A stretch of DNA of 64,000 nucleotides, taken from NCBI GenBank assembly GCA_964016885.1, contig OZ024741.1, forward strand, positions 16,678,001 to 16,742,000, in the 5' to 3' direction. Each line of letters starts with the position of its first letter. Within the stretch, counting starts at the first letter, position 1. The position numbers and the translations under genes were made by a program. The notes under the pieces were generated by a model, which did no database searches, was not told the origin of the DNA, and worked only from the letters and a program-made list of their open reading frames with translations. This DNA comes from Eledone cirrhosa. Taxonomy: Eukaryota. Of this stretch, positions 47,285 through 57,159 are shown in pieces.

Positions 47285-47884
47285 ATGGTAACTCAGTGCA
47301 TTTCACAGATTACTACTACAAACCCAAAGTTCACTCACCACATAAACTTAGTCTGTCCCCTCTCTACCTCTCTCTCTACATCCATTACACTCTCTCTCGC
47401 CTTTGGCCTACCTCCCTCTCCACATCTATGAACCTGCTCTCTGGGGCAATAAATAATTCCGACCTTAACTATCAACGCATCTCTCCAAAAGTAACCAGTA
47501 TAATAAAACCCCTACCATAATATTTTGATTAAGATATCTACAAACCACTCTCTCTTACTTCTCCAACCCCTGCATATCTTTCTCTCTCTCCCTCTTTTCT
47601 CTCTTCCTTTTCTACTCTATCTTCCCCAACAACCCCACTTAAGGGTATTTACATTGTACATTTTACCATTCTGCTCTGAGAATACAGTGGTCACAGCATT
47701 GGATATTTGAGTTCTGCAAATTCTTGTAAATTTGCACATAGCATAACTAGGCTGTAGTACCACCGTGGAAACACAACGACCACGCAAGAGTCTATCGCCC
47801 AACCAGTTACCGGCATGAAGTTCCGGCGGGCCAAAGGTTTCACCACAACAGAAACACCCCTATCCCAAATGGCACCCATTTTTT

Positions 47885-50198
47885 AGGACTAGGGGCCTCG
47901 CACCAAATGAAAGAAAAAAAGAAAAAAGCACCACCTTTCAAGTGGCACCCGACGAGAAAGAACCAATCGAACCAAAAATAATCAATATATCAGCCAAGAA
48001 ATTAACACAACCAGAAATACAACTGTTAGAAAATGGACTGAAGTTCATTCCCACTCCGAAAGCAGATACAGCTGATGTTATAAAAGACACAGAAGAATAC
48101 TGTCGAAAATTACGCTTAGGAGAATTCTTCCAGGGTGTACAATACGAGGAAGAATCACTGGTGAAAAACAAAAAGAACTTCACACCCCCGCTAAATAGAG
48201 ATAAATACCTGGAGAAGTACATAACCTGCCTTCGCCAATCAGCACGTACAAATACGGCCGAGATGAAACACAAACGCAACATCCCTACAGACCAACTACA
48301 TTGAACAAGCTACAAAGGGATTCCTCAATAATAATAAAAGAAGCGGACAAAGGTGGAGCAATCGTCATCATGGACATAAACCACTACAAAGATATGGTTC
48401 TAGCACACTTGAATGACGAAAACTTCTACAGGAAAATCACTAAAAACGAAGATAGGAAATCGAGGAACCAAATAGGCAAACTAACAACAAAGTACCAAAA
48501 CAACCTAACACCAAAAGTAGATTACCTAACCAACTTCGAAATGAAAACCAGCAATTTCTATGGATTACCAAAAATTCACAAATCCATAGAAATCCAAAAC
48601 AACATAAAAGGGAAAAATACATCATACATCGAAGCACCAAAACCGACAGACTTAAAATTACGCCCCATTATTGCTGGCCCAGCCTCGAGCACACAACGTC
48701 TAAGCAACCTATTAGACATCATACTCAAACCCCTATGTAAAAAAGTTCCAAGCTACATCAGAGATGATATGGAATTCCTTAACTATATCCCCCAAAAAGT
48801 ACACCAGGATACAATCCTAGTCAGTTTTGATGTAATAAGCCTGTACACTAACATCCCACACGACCTAGGGATTGAAGCTGTGGACTTCTGGATTACAAAA
48901 CACTCAAGTCACATTTCAGAAAGATTCCCCAAAGAATTCATCTTGGAAGGACTTAAATTAGTATTGGAAAACAACCACTTCCTCTTTGACAACGAACTTT
49001 ATCTACAAATAAAAGGAACAGCCATGGGTACCAAAGTGGCCCCTACATATGCAACGCTCGTTATGGGTCACTTTATATATTATATTCCCAACTACAGATA
49101 ACATTCAGTCATGACTTCGCCTTCTACATTAATAAAAACTGGAAACGTTACCTAGATGACTGCTTCATCTTCTGGAACAGAAGCCAAACAGACCTACAAA
49201 AATTTTATTCGATCTTAAACAGGCTTCATGAAGCTATACAATTCACTATGGAATGTAACGAAAAGGAACTGCCCTTTCTAGATATCCTCATCATTAAAGA
49301 AGGGGAAAATATCATAACGGACCTATTTTGCAAACCCACTGACACACACCAATACTTAAATTTCCGGTCAGCACACCCCTCACATACGAAAAGGAACATT
49401 CCCTTCAACATGGCAAGGCTCATCTGCACTATCGCAACACACCCCGTACTACAAGAAAAAAGATTATGTGACCTGAAAAAATTCCTTAAAAAACAAGAAT
49501 ACCCGATGAAACTCATCAACGCAGCCATCTCCAAGGCTAAGAACATCCCAATAACAACACTGAGAAAACCAAACCCACAACATAAAAAAGAAAACCCTGC
49601 TATCTCTTTTGTCATCACTCACAACCCAGGGAACGTCAACATTGTGAAAACTGCTAAGCAGTATCTCCCGATTCTACAGCAATCTACCAAAATGAATGCA
49701 CTCTTAAAAAACACACAGATAATTTATAGCAGACGCCAAGCACCCAACCTTAAAAAACTAATTACCAAGGCAAAATTTTCGACCAACATGGAATCAATGC
49801 AAGTGACGAAATGCGGGGACCCTAGATGTGGAACCTGTGAACTCATCGAAGAGGGCAAACAGTTGTCCTTCAAAAACCATGATAATTTCAAGGTCAATGC
49901 AAACATGAACTGCAAAACGAAAAACCTAATATATTGCGCAACATGTCCACAGTGTAAAGAGTATTACATTGGGGAAACCGGAACGGGACTACATGATAGA
50001 GTCCGGGTACATAAACAACAAATTAAAGACCCCACAGTCAGAAATACCACATGTAGCGCACACTTTGCTTCATGCGGGAAGGGAAAATTCACAATCTTCC
50101 CTTTCTTCAAGATATGGTCGGATAACGAACATTTCCGCAGATATAAAGAAGAATTCTTCATTGAAAAATTTAAACCACTACTGAACACGAAAAAATGA
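47885..50198 (+). pseudogene. Neptune-like PLE 1: RT, Zn finger and GIY-YIG with frameshifts near 48300 and 49080; element starts ~47755
   Basis: IINIS..GLKFIPTP, ADKGGAIV, FYGLPKIHK, RPII, FDVISLYTNIP, GTAMGTK, RYLDD, KCGDPRCGTC, LIYC..YYIGETG. Confidence 0.9.
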
Positions 50199-50249
50199 AT
50201 TAACACTCGGAGGTAAAATTCAATTTCACTACCCCCCCCCCCTCTTCTT

Positions 50250-54416: not shown

Positions 54417-54856
54417 CACAGGCACATCCCCCACCAACACAAACCAAATACGGCCAACTACACCAAAAGAAACACACCCAACCACCACAACACAGGTTTC
54501 CGTAGAAATACCCCCTACATAAACCAACGACGAAATAACATAGATCCAACTCACAACACACACACCACATTCCTCAGAAGAAATCCACCCAGACCACTTG
54601 AAATCACAACAGAACTTACCCACAACCACACCAGACATCACCCTCAATCCAACAAAAGACAACCCCCCAACCTCAACACTGTACCACAGAAATAACGCAC
54701 CCAGACCACATGAACCAACAACAGAACCCTTGCTCATTAACAACCACAACACATACAACCCCACCATCACATTCACCCTCATGAAAAAACAAGCTACAGA
54801 CCCACACGCAACAGACCAACAAAATATAATCACACACAAAACTACATTCCTTTTTT

Positions 54857-57159
54857 AGGAAAAAGCCTGAAATACCAGGATACTCGATGGCCCCTCCTCA
54901 GGAGAAACCAAAAATAATCAACCTCTCAAAGACACCTCTAACCAACACACAAATCAACATTTTAAGTAAGAGCCTGAAATTTACACCTACACCATGTAAA
55001 CCAAACTTCCCCGAAATGAAGGATGACATCATAGAATTCTGCCGAAAGCTGCGACTAACGGAATTCTTCCACAACGACACCAACACTGAAGACGAATCAC
55101 TGGTTAGAAATAAAAGCAATTTCTGCCCACAAAAGGGAAGAAATAAAGCACTGGACACGTACTGCGAACACATCACCAACTTTCCCTATGAAAAAATTAC
55201 AAATAAACACACGAAATCAAACCTATCTACACACGAATGGGAAGAATTATTCACACTTAGAAACAACCCTGAGATAACTATCAAAGAAGCCGATAAAGGC
55301 AGTACTGTTGTCATTATGAATACGGACTACTATAGGACCCTCGCACTTAACATTTTAGAAAACAACACATACTATGAAAAAACAGAAAACTACAAACACA
55401 CCAAAACAATGGGGAACCTTTTGACCTTACTGAATAAATACCGCAACAGCTTAACCACAAAAGAGTTTAACTATATAAGCCACTTCAAATGCAATACAAG
55501 CTCCTTTTACGGCTTACCGAAACTCCACAAATGTAAACCCATAAACGATGCATGTGACACCTCAACCAACAATTACATTGAACTAACACCACCAGAAGAC
55601 CTAAAACTCAGGCCAATTATAGCAGGCCCTACATGTGAAACCCACAGACTTAGCAACTTTCTGGATATCCTACTGAAACCCTTTCTACAACATATACAGA
55701 GCTACATACGAGATGACCTTGACATGCTGAAACACCTCCCTAAAACAGTAAGTGCAAATACAATTCTTGTCTCCTTTGACGTAAGAAACCGCTACACAAA
55801 CATACCCCACAACTATGGAATAACAGCAGTCCAATACTGGCTTAACACACACCCATCAGAAATACCGACACGCATCAACAAAGATTTTATCACTGACGGA
55901 CTCCGCTTTATCCTACAAAATAACTACTTCACATTCAATGGTTCAACATACAGACAAGTATCAGGTACGGCAATGGGCACGAAAGTAGCACCCACATATG
56001 CCAACCTAGTCATGGGATTCCATGAACAACAAATATACAGTCAGTCCCTTCTCTTATTTGGAGACTCTTTCCATACACACCTCAAAGCCAATTGGAAAAG
56101 ATATCTAGACGACTGCTTTATCCTATGGCAAGAAGACATGAACTCACTATGTTTAAAAACATGATAAACAACATAGATAATAACATATAATTCACAATGG
56201 AATCCAATCCCAAGGAATTAGCCTTCTTGGATATTCTCATCTCTGTAATAGACGGGAAATTAGATACAGATATATTCTATAAACCCACAGATTCCAAGCA
56301 ATACCTCTTTTTCACATCAAGTCACCCAAAACATACAAAACTTAACATTCCTTACAATTTGGCCAAACGTATATGTACCATAGTATCAGATCCACCTAAA
56401 CGGGAGCAAAGACTAAAGGAACTAAAAGACACCCTTATCTTAAGAGCCTTTCCACTTGAAATAATCAACAATGGAATAGACAGGGGAAAACACCTAAATC
56501 CCCATCAACTTAACAATCCAAAACAGAAAACCACACTCAACACCCTGCCATATGTATCCACTTTCAACCCCAGAAATACCGAAATGTTTGATCACCTACA
56601 CAAAAACCTCCCCATCCTACTTAAAGATGTAAAAATGAAGTCTATTCTTGAAACACACAAGATCCTTAAAAGTAAAAGACAACCCAAATCACTAAAACGC
56701 ATTCTCACTGGACCAAATATACCCAAACCAATCCTCAACCCTACAGTTACCAAATGTGGTAGAACACTCTGTGGAACGTGCCTCTACCTCACTGAAGGAC
56801 AAACATTTACATTTAAAGATGGCCAAACATTTACAGTAAAAAACAATTTCACCTGCAACTCGGAGAACTTGATTTACGTAATAACTTGCGGTGGGTGCAA
56901 ACACAACTACATAGGACAGACGGGCACCGCATTACGCAAAAGAATGACCATCCACCGCCAACAAATCCGGGACGCTAACACAAGAAAAATGCCCTTGAGC
57001 AGCCATATTGCGAATTGCGCAGGAATAAGACTACCCAACTTTAAAATCTTCCCCTTCTACAAGTTCTCAGATTCGTTCACACAGCAACAAAGAATAAACA
57101 AAGAAAATCTATTTCTTAACAAATTTAAACCAAAACTAAACGGGTTATCACCCCAATAG
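54857..57159 (+). pseudogene. Neptune 2 RT, Zn finger and GIY-YIG; frameshift and stop at ~56150-56190
   Basis: PKIINLS, ADKGSTVV, FYGLPKLHK, GTAMGTK, RYLDD, KCGRTLCGTC, LIYVITC..YIGQTG. Confidence 0.9.

Follow-up and report, generated by a model that had tools for sequence, protein, structure and literature searches.

Two decayed Neptune-like elements

The window, a 64,000-nucleotide stretch of Eledone cirrhosa DNA, contains two decayed copies of young Neptune-like families of endonuclease-bearing (EN+) Penelope-like elements (PLEs), referred to here as elements 1 and 2 of families 1 and 2. Their reverse transcriptase-endonuclease (RT-EN) regions are 45% identical, and copies are scattered across many contigs of the genome. 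The following features were assigned:

47774 to 47981, + strand: 3' remnant of element 1 ORF1; a 97.6% match to the intact copy L038 begins at 47774
47879 to 47885, + strand: putative slippery heptamer U_UUU_UUA of element 1, in phase and intact in 25 of 30 copies
47879 to 50198, + strand: element 1 RT, CxxC linker and GIY-YIG frame, at -1 relative to ORF1
47979 to 47981, + strand: TAA stop of element 1 ORF1, 31 sense codons past UUA
53252 to 53653, + strand: element 2 5' end, an inverted pLTR (53252-53423) followed by a direct pLTR
53654 to 54917, + strand: element 2 ORF1, beginning with ATG at 53654, 421 aa when intact
54851 to 54857, + strand: putative slippery heptamer U_UUU_UUA of element 2, in phase at 28 of 30 loci
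54851 to 57159, + strand: element 2 RT, CxxC linker and GIY-YIG frame, at -1 relative to ORF1
54887 to 54889, + strand: in-frame AUG of the RT frame, family 2 only (a Met ahead of the conserved RT start in 1 of 14 lineages)
54891 to 54897, + strand: unstable poly-C tract in the family 2 overlap, altered in length in 44 of 99 copies among the matches listed
54915 to 54917, + strand: TAA stop of element 2 ORF1, 19 sense codons past UUA
58310 to 58506, + strand: element 2 3' pLTR, with a hammerhead-like core at 58359

Element 1 is 5'-truncated at 47774 and retains only the end of an ORF1 that is 404 aa long when intact. Its RT-EN frame is broken by indels in the window copy, is a 796-codon open frame in intact copies, and has no AUG ahead of the conserved RT start. 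The initial annotation had noticed that ATG is missing at the RT start of element 1; position 47942 is GTG, and position 54887 in element 2 is ATG. The annotation had also described the upstream ORF of element 2 as decayed, and we found a TAG at 54194 and three indels downstream of its ATG. The RT-EN frame of this copy carries one 4-nt deletion, and many other copies have a 777-codon open frame. Pfam RVT_1 and, C-terminal to it, a GIY-YIG domain with CxxC-x3-YIG and two His (CCHH) were both matched. The linker of both elements reads C-x4-CxxC and the next Cys follows some 24 aa further on, a spacing assigned by eye to Neptune rather than Nematis against the rows of Fig. S2 of PMC8557442. The direct pLTR of element 2 has a U3-A8 hammerhead-like core at 53440, a core variant described in PMC4209133; cores of this type occur in families 1 and 2, and canonical ones are predicted in contigs L109 and L111. 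An Rfam scan of positions 45000-59500 gave only microsatellite miRNA matches, all below threshold.

A heptamer conserved in phase across families

Re-reading of the window sequence confirmed TTTTTTAGGA at 47879 and 54851, where the zero frames read H-F-L-G and P-F-L-G, respectively, matching the x-F-L-G given in the initial annotation. As had been stated, both elements have RT in the -1 frame, with the offsets to 47942 and 54887 being multiples of 3. The + strand of the window has nine occurrences of TTTTTTA, and from the element's own dinucleotides 0.005 in-phase heptamers within 200 nt would be expected by chance per family. Intact copies have two ORFs and not one continuous ORF, namely a helical ORF1 of 404-421 aa and an RT-GIY-YIG frame at -1, with the heptamer in phase at the frequencies listed above. 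Seven of 30 family 1 copies retain the whole ORF1 in -1 phase, and in family 2 the heptamer is intact in 94 of the 100 genome-wide matches listed, none of which has a seventh T. Two ORFs with an in-phase heptamer were also found in family 3 (9/11 copies), family 4 (7/8) and family 5 (7/8) of this genome. Contigs from elsewhere were retrieved by their RT start alone; an ORF1 match is present in 11 of them, always in the -1 relation, and nine of these have an in-phase U_UUU_UUR (U6A/U6G); L143 has ORF1 at -1 without a canonical heptamer. Conservation and phase of the heptamer were thus upheld in five families of the genome and in distant relatives.

For 14 DNA lineages, chosen for having an in-phase heptamer, the ORF1/RT overlap measures 43-163 nt, and in 11 of these U6R is the sole in-phase XXXYYYZ within it; the RT frame of L132 is open only from the heptamer onwards. 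In an RT tree built without named reference elements, the ORF1-bearing elements fall on one side of a branch with an SH-aLRT of 98 and the single-ORF relatives among the contigs on the other.

Two further features pointed out initially are real but do not hold as signals. Both zero frames end with TAA inside AACCAAAAATAA (47970 and 54906), overlapping PKIIN; this sequence is a by-product of the RT-frame codons for PKII, and families 3 and 5 stop elsewhere. The YRPT motif is present upstream in both elements, and was found in just 2 of 159 ORF1 homologues.

None of the runs listed as carrying family 2 is an RNA run. Among contigs from two runs of unrecorded kind, a deep one in X1 spans the junction without an indel and one shallow one in X4 has an extra T. 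None has a splice-like joint, and they have no bearing on expression or splicing.

ORF1 in distant relatives

A trace of the heptamer is visible in protein sequences. Phe-Leu occurs within the C-terminal 60 aa of 72 of 82 distant ORF1 homologues, versus 8 of 82 in the preceding 60 aa, which served as control. The residue ahead of it is never E, Q, K, M or W, whose codons are unable to end in U (0/85 against 16.5 expected; 41/76 for control Phe-Leu pairs). Phe-Leu is missing from 22 of 109 homologues with a full tail. ORF1 is under purifying selection, with dN/dS values of 0.12-0.29 in four pairs, and its domain comprises at least about 1,000 clusters at 50% identity. It is present in mollusc gene models annotated as hypothetical proteins; no Pfam family was found for it, and the viral contigs searched yielded no relative.

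The family 1 ORF1 is predicted to be all-helical, with long helices followed by a basic disordered tail. Foldseek searches of PDB and BFVD gave no match at E<=0.001, and the best VIA-align results (Z 9.2, rmsd 5.7) are generic helical bundles, with no match to a Gag-like fold. ORF1 was also compared with the N-terminal extension found in single-ORF relatives, and homology between them is unsupported (best HMM E-value 7.5e-4 in 18 sequences; profile-profile probability 0.2%).

Splicing, separate initiation and polymerase slippage

The initial annotation had named a splice acceptor, tttttag followed by G, as the alternative to frameshifting, by which an intron would take out most of ORF1 and join an upstream AUG exon to RT. 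Introns do occur in PLEs (PMC8557442), and the AG is present in 10 of the 14 DNA lineages and permitted by 58 of 87 proteins, but it is absent from family 3, L101, L104 and L132, and in the other 29 proteins the next codon cannot begin with G. Moreover, the upstream sequence is A/C-rich (16% T) and without a pyrimidine tract, and an acceptor accounts neither for the fixed phase to ORF1 nor for the U ahead of UUU, leaving splicing very improbable. The RT-EN protein might instead be translated on its own, from an internal start or through reinitiation once ORF1 has terminated. The in-frame AUG of family 2, 36 nt past the heptamer and 28 nt ahead of the ORF1 stop, would suit this possibility, and ORF2 of L1 is initiated independently of AUG. 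However, a Met ahead of the conserved RT start is missing from 13 of 14 lineages and the heptamer would be left without explanation, so that we consider separate production very unlikely. In short, both are disfavoured because AG is missing in 4/14 lineages and AUG in 13/14.

A third possibility is that active elements are single-ORF, the two frames being joined by a base that the polymerase inserts when it slips on a homopolymer, whether in transcription or in reverse transcription. The frames are indeed fused in 15 of the 44 altered C tracts among the 99 family 2 matches listed, and in 3 of 30 family 1 copies through an extra A. The C-tract changes nevertheless fall in all phases (21 break, 15 fuse and 8 keep the frame) and have many lengths, and therefore do not mark a fused lineage, while the T6 run has no added T in the 100 matches listed and a single loss. 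Other families lack such a tract, and the RT start is found in only 1 of 159 ORF1 homologues, a predicted mussel gene model. Fusion by polymerase slippage is accordingly a highly unlikely source of the RT-EN protein.

Taken together, the comparisons support the frameshift interpretation of the initial annotation: these are very probably two-gene EN+ PLEs, in which ORF1 overlaps RT-EN at a conserved U_UUU_UUA and ribosomes slip by -1 to make a minor ORF1-RT-EN fusion. Translation would begin at the ORF1 AUG, and at the heptamer tRNA-Phe and tRNA-Leu would re-pair on UUU UUU. Most ribosomes would finish at the ORF1 stop, making ORF1 abundant, and those slipping back one base would produce a fusion of about 1,150-1,170 residues. 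With its long helices and basic disordered tail, the abundant ORF1 may act as an RNA-binding scaffold.

Stop spacing as a candidate stimulator

For a stem-loop or pseudoknot of the gag-pol type, 5-9 nt 3' of the heptamer, no RNA structure common to the sites was detected: the 45-nt z-scores of 16 ORF1-clade sites are centred around 0, and only L104 (z -3.8) and L110 (z -1.9) have a hairpin 3' of the heptamer near or below -2. A stem heuristic did not separate the ORF1-clade sites, nor did it separate the control group. As to the position of the ORF1 stop, none of 85 homologues stops fewer than ten codons past UUA, and 26 stop exactly after ten, although these are not independent cases, since the label (d=12) is clustered on the tree with 8 changes; thereafter about 8% stop per codon. 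The stops of 59 of the 85 lie beyond ten codons, those of the two window families among them. The idea that k=31 contig ends produced the peak at 12 residues was rejected, as ten-codon spacing exists as real DNA stops in 4 of 14 lineages (family 5, L101, L108 and L110). It is preserved over long branches in two clades, and the sequence between heptamer and stop varies freely. Periodicity of the stops beyond ten codons is weak (best p 0.025 with seven periods tried and relatives that are not independent).

Composition contributes to this pattern. Just 3' of the heptamer, a stretch of 30 nt has little U (9%, versus 16-17% in the flanks) and is G-rich, and part of the stop gap can be ascribed to composition because even the unused third frame is poor in stops there, with only 5 in 140 codons. 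In L103, L104 and L106, GACCACAACTGG recurs at least 12 nt downstream of the heptamer.

In mouse disomes, the A sites lie at offsets of 15 nt and of 45 or 48 nt, a spacing of 30 or 33 nt (PMC7397865), and in the ten-codon families the corresponding spacing is 33 nt, equal to eukaryotic disome spacing. Our analysis tentatively points to a ribosome terminating at the ORF1 stop, rather than an RNA fold, as the likeliest stimulator: when terminating ten codons beyond UUA, it would hold the trailing ribosome on the heptamer. Where the stop is more remote, as in both window families, slipping would have to rely on longer queues of ribosomes or on how slippery U6A is by itself. With similar reserve, a widespread animal retrotransposon clade may use a natural collision-gated -1 frameshift, its stop placed one ribosome length past U_UUU_UUA.

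There is a nearly even chance that the frameshift is real and driven differently, by the heptamer alone, by a 3'-bound protein (ORF1 or host) or by a long-range RNA fold; this contests the stimulator step only. U6A slips at a low rate even without a stimulator. Ten-codon spacing would then reflect something else, for instance a length that the ORF1 tail must have. The 59 of 85 stops past ten codons agree with this, as do the U-poor, G-rich stretch 3' of the site and the recurrence in L103, L104 and L106, but the sharp floor and the peak at precisely ten codons, over intervening sequence that varies freely, are left unexplained.

Implications

With a -1 frameshift, a large set of EN+ Penelope-like elements would need a revised gene model with a separate ORF1 and a -1 RT-EN frame, and an RT frame expressed by itself would omit the likely native protein. 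If the stop-spacing interpretation is true as well, these elements provide a natural eukaryotic frameshift driven by ribosome collision, a stimulation that, in the papers covered, has been demonstrated with engineered bacterial reporters (PMC6815119), together with dozens of natural cassettes. More RT-endonuclease would in that case be made as ribosome load increases and as termination slows, the reverse of what pseudoknot signals do.

Comparison with known systems

The elements share with the Neptune clade, as described in PMC8557442, the RT, a Neptune-spaced CxxC linker, a GIY-YIG with CCHH, pLTRs, a hammerhead core and microsatellite surroundings. For canonical EN+ PLEs a single ORF is described (PMC8557442, PMC6431247), whereas the present elements have a separate 400-450-aa ORF1 overlapping RT at -1, and in 13 of 14 lineages no AUG ahead of RT. 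We call them Neptune-like and not canonical because they are not single-ORF; Neptune itself is given as paraphyletic (PMC8557442), and for a killifish Neptune the description gives two ORFs that do not overlap, without a frameshift (PMC12602865). The literature search on PLE frameshifts, covering search listings and text passages, found only the Fig. 1 legend of PMC8557442, according to which some PLEs are drawn as two-ORF with 'ORF1 separated by a frameshift with a pseudoknot'. A figure of that paper or earlier sources may already describe the present frameshift.

Two-ORF EN-deficient PLEs resemble the window-type elements in having a PLE RT that would be reached by frameshift from an upstream coiled-coil ORF1. 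The two-ORF frameshift PLEs are reportedly the EN-deficient Athena elements of Arkhipova et al. 2017. Six EN-less or esterase-type contigs (L149, L155, L158, L165, L146 and L175) have an in-phase heptamer with the stop 0-2 codons on, and three of them a hairpin. The window-type elements differ from the EN-deficient PLEs (Athena/Coprina) by their GIY-YIG, an unrelated ORF1 and the apparent lack of a common 3' fold, and they keep the ORF1 stop ten or more codons off.

The HIV-1 gag-pol -1 frameshift site is likewise U_UUU_UUA (PMC5009743). The heptamer is identical, the overlap is at -1, and a structural protein precedes the enzyme, so that 'gag-pol-like', the term used initially, suits the proposed expression strategy. 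It does not extend further: no HIV-type 3' stem-loop shared by the PLEs was detected, their all-helical ORF1 has no Gag-like fold match, and they are neither LTR elements nor viruses.

In SARS-CoV-2, a stop five codons away works differently, by letting the pseudoknot refold (PMC8168617). Closer to the PLE sites are the E. coli reporters in which a ribosome stalled at a stop boosts -1 slipping of the trailing one, with a peak at a 9-codon spacer (PMC6815119). As in those reporters, which have no RNA structure, the heptamer of the ten-codon PLE families lies one ribosome length 5' of a stop, with no apparent common fold, but the E. coli system is engineered and bacterial with a 9-codon optimum, whereas the PLE case would be natural, conserved and eukaryotic, with a 10-codon spacer.

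Two Neptune-like elements with an upstream reading frame

The window belongs to a 3.0-Gb animal assembly, is dense in transposon remains and contains two Neptune-like, endonuclease-bearing (EN+) Penelope-like elements (PLEs) whose RT-EN parts are 45% identical. TTTTTTAGGA is present at 47879 (element 1) and 54851 (element 2). At both sites the zero frame, that of an upstream ORF (ORF1), reads x-F-L-G and terminates at the TAA within AACCAAAAATAA; the -1 frame reads F-F-R and continues into PKIIN and then the RT. The initial annotation had described this heptamer, U_UUU_UUA, as a -1 frameshift signal, and its account of the site, the shared TAA and the RT frame was borne out on the window sequence. 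The chance expectation for a TTTTTTA in phase within 200 nt is 0.005 per family. In both elements the RT is joined to the GIY-YIG endonuclease by a C-x4-CxxC linker with about 24 aa to the next Cys, a Neptune-type spacing on visual comparison with Fig. S2 of PMC8557442. Both elements are decayed copies. Element 2 is full-length and carries pseudo-LTRs (pLTRs) in inverted and direct orientation and a U3-A8 hammerhead core; element 1 is broken off at 47774. TTTTTTAGG also occurs at 18235, as H-F-L-G-H codons of a gypsy RT, so a single such match by itself carries no meaning. Other elements in the window are:

59163-59326: fragment of a family 1 solo pLTR that contains a U3-A8 hammerhead core at 59209
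50900-53178, minus strand: another PLE whose RT and GIY-YIG regions are fragmented, with a canonical hammerhead core at 50933
7208-9106 and 46226-47284, plus strand: PLE-like ORFs of another type, no Pfam match, with YRDD RT, WYNPP motif, C-rich end and YIG; similar on visual comparison to the Hydra rows in Fig. S1 of PMC8557442
26360-29461, also 2641-5139, 11240-13951 and 43621-44877, plus strand: APE-RT non-LTR family in which the RT domain is immediately followed by a PHD finger; one copy keeps an open frame of 1,033 codons
33170-36444, plus strand: Helitron Rep/PIF1 helicase, in pieces

ORF1 is a widespread protein under selection

ORF1 is a real, widespread protein. Those of families 1-3 are 23-29% identical pairwise with a conserved middle domain, and a profile of this domain, at an E-value cutoff of 0.001, matched at least 1,000 cluster representatives, of which 490 pass 1e-10. 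The named relatives are annotated as hypothetical proteins and come from Mytilus, Saccostrea and the assembly of a Solemya symbiont. An RT start was present in one of 159 homologues, a predicted mussel gene model. The four unsaturated ORF1 pairs gave dN/dS values of 0.12, 0.17, 0.25 and 0.29; ORF1 is under purifying selection. In the predicted structure, residues 17-244 form five long helices (pLDDT mostly >90), and a disordered, basic tail follows. A Pfam search with ORF1 found no family above threshold, and comparison of the model found no specific fold match. ORF1 may act as an oligomeric RNA-binding scaffold.

The heptamer is conserved within and beyond the Eledone genome

To cover other copies in the genome, the best 150 of 7,698 and the best 150 of 3,134 candidates were scored, and the best 30 of each were examined. 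The heptamer was in -1 phase in 28 of the 30 family 2 copies (of the other two, one has a downstream 1-nt loss and one is substituted) and in 25 of the 30 family 1 copies (of the other five, three are fused by a downstream extra A and two are substituted), and seven copies of each family retained a whole ORF1, of 421 and 404 aa, respectively, the latter in -1 phase. Intact copies among these best 30 thus have two ORFs, not one continuous ORF. Three further families were found: the heptamer was in phase at 9/11 loci of family 3, and the other 9 of the same 20 loci represent an older family 1 subfamily (two in phase, four with heptamer and indels, three truncated). Families 4 and 5 had it in phase at 7/8 loci each, with 4/20 loci lacking the RT start.

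Outside contigs were chosen by RT start alone, taking the best 80 of at least 98 metagenome matches and 2 genome contigs. Among these 82, 8 were without the RT start and 11 had an ORF1 match. ORF1 was -1 relative to RT in all 11 and an in-phase U6A or U6G was present in nine, so the heptamer's conservation and phase hold in five families here and in most ORF1-bearing outside contigs; L156 has five T, and L143 is without a canonical heptamer. Three short contigs of one family (L110, L126 and L139) carry the heptamer and no ORF1 match. In a quick-search RT tree without named reference elements, a branch with SH-aLRT 98 divided the 13 ORF1 elements included from the 10 single-ORF and the 6 EN-less ones.

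The signal was also seen in protein. Phe-Leu occurred in the last 60 residues of 72/82 ORF1 homologues (330-560 aa), versus 8/82 in the preceding 60. Residues that have no codon ending in U (E, Q, K, M, W) preceded it in 0/85 cases (16.5 expected), versus 41/76 for the FL pairs elsewhere in these proteins; as read from these sequences, this gap is the X of X_XXY_YYZ visible at the protein level. At the expected F-L position, L143 (640-760), P0110 and P0118 have Y-F-R, perhaps a candidate single-tRNA slip site, with a stop about ten codons downstream; the L143 ORF1 is still -1.

Routes to the RT frame

Across 14 DNA lineages of the ORF1 clade, chosen for having an in-phase heptamer, ORF1 and RT overlap by 43-163 nt, and the RT frame opens 0 (L132) and 1 (L101) codons before the heptamer. 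Family 2 is the one lineage with a Met before the RT start, which would permit RT-EN to be started by its own initiation, but the other 13 have none, making this route very unlikely. The initial annotation had offered splicing at the AG just after the heptamer as the other source of the RT frame; such an acceptor is extremely improbable, as the AG is absent in 4/14 lineages and impossible in 29/87 ORF1 proteins, and no pyrimidine tract lies upstream.

Polymerase slippage at a homopolymer could also fuse the ORFs. Slippage is indeed recorded in a family 2 C tract lying 34 nt beyond the heptamer: 44/99 listed copies differ in its length, 15 of them with fused frames, but changes there break frames in 21/99, and the T6 run has almost no such record. 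With the heptamer left open, a family 2 pattern search returned 182 places, and the 100 listed, counted by hand, had 94 intact heptamers, 5 substituted, 1 with five T and 0 with seven T. We regard slippage as a most improbable route. A family 2 subfamily (window 54891-54897; L183-L200) has an ATG followed immediately by a long, variable poly-C tract, and some of its copies are fused into a single 1,170-aa frame.

With layout, heptamer conservation, missing RT AUG and selection on ORF1 as observed, translation very probably starts at the ORF1 AUG and a tandem -1 slip on U_UUU_UUA would yield a minor ORF1-RT-EN fusion of ~1,170 aa in family 2 and ~1,147 aa in family 1. As an expression strategy, the gag-pol-like reading is supported by two-ORF copies, the conserved in-phase heptamer and weakened rivals.

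Stop spacing and a possible stimulator

For the majority of 16 ORF1-clade sites, the 45 nt 3' of the heptamer do not fold more stably than shuffled sequence (exceptions L104 and L110). Shortly 3' of the heptamer, GACCACAACTGG (zero frame DHNW) recurs in one subclade (L103, L104, L106; P0040, P0073, P0110, P0118), a possible candidate protein-binding stimulator.

Stop distances were counted from the FL nearest the C-terminal end (P0179 has FL at 20 and 4; 20 was taken) in 85 of 159 homologues, after dropping 50 (tail <70 aa), 22 without FL near the end and 2 with FL >45 aa away. ORF1 ends within ten codons of the Leu in 0/85 and exactly after ten in 26/85, and beyond ten it ends at ~8% per codon. 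Tyr and Trp, one change from stop, occupy 48/850 codons of the ten-codon stretch. In two clades this spacing persists across long branches, with the ten residues varying freely; real DNA stops confirm it in family 5, L101, L108 and L110.

With ten sense codons between them, UUA and the ORF1 stop are 33 nt apart, measured between A sites. Disomes in mouse occur in two states, with A-site offsets of 15 versus 45 or 48 nt (PMC7397865). In E. coli reporters, -1 slipping of the follower increases when the ribosome ahead is stalled at a stop, with a peak at nine codons (PMC6815119). We tentatively suggest that a terminating or queued ribosome may hold the follower on the heptamer, as a roadblock driving the slip; closer stops would be missing because they leave no room for the ribosome ahead while the next crosses the heptamer. 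Against this collision reading, the stop gap partly reflects composition: the stretch is U-poor, and the unused frame has 5 stops per 140 codons there versus 0 in the zero frame. The ten-codon label is clustered on the tree (8 changes), periodicity of stop distance is weak (p 0.025, uncorrected), and 59/85 stops lie further than ten codons from the Leu, as in family 2 (19 codons) and family 1 (31), spacings compatible with predicted queues of two and three ribosomes. The collision hypothesis is testable.

Comparison with known systems

According to PMC8557442 and PMC6431247, EN+ PLEs carry a single ORF, and PLEs with two ORFs are EN-less. In PMC8557442, the legend of Fig. 1 states that a frameshift with a pseudoknot can set a PLE ORF1 apart, and the supplement, in the places covered, mentions frameshift and ORF1 for Chlamys rows only; esterases are mentioned in Neptune-like PLEs in PMC5408684. 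Among the papers found by the literature searches, none treats the U6A heptamer in EN+ PLEs or a natural stop-spaced eukaryotic frameshift. What would be new is the pairing of probable -1 frameshifting with an EN+ Penelope clade whose ORF1 is undescribed; the frameshift may already be marked in a PLE figure.

Other PLEs also have long upstream ORFs. L146 (1-2442 and 2436) is an EN+ PLE from a different branch. Its upstream ORF, 814 codons long, encodes NADAR and GDSL-esterase domains and is linked to RT at a coronavirus-type U_UUA_AAC, with a stop immediately following and a hairpin 5 nt downstream; L175 has the same heptamer. EN-less PLEs (L155:2441, L165:2245, L149:1243 and L157/L158/L168; L157 preceded by (CCCTAG)n) have an in-phase U_UUU_UUA, A_AAA_AAC or G_GAU_UUU with a stop within two codons. 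In six such distant elements, EN-less or esterase-type, the stop lies within two codons of the heptamer, with a clear hairpin in three; this close stop and hairpin resemble the coronavirus geometry (PMC8168617), from which the ORF1 clade differs.
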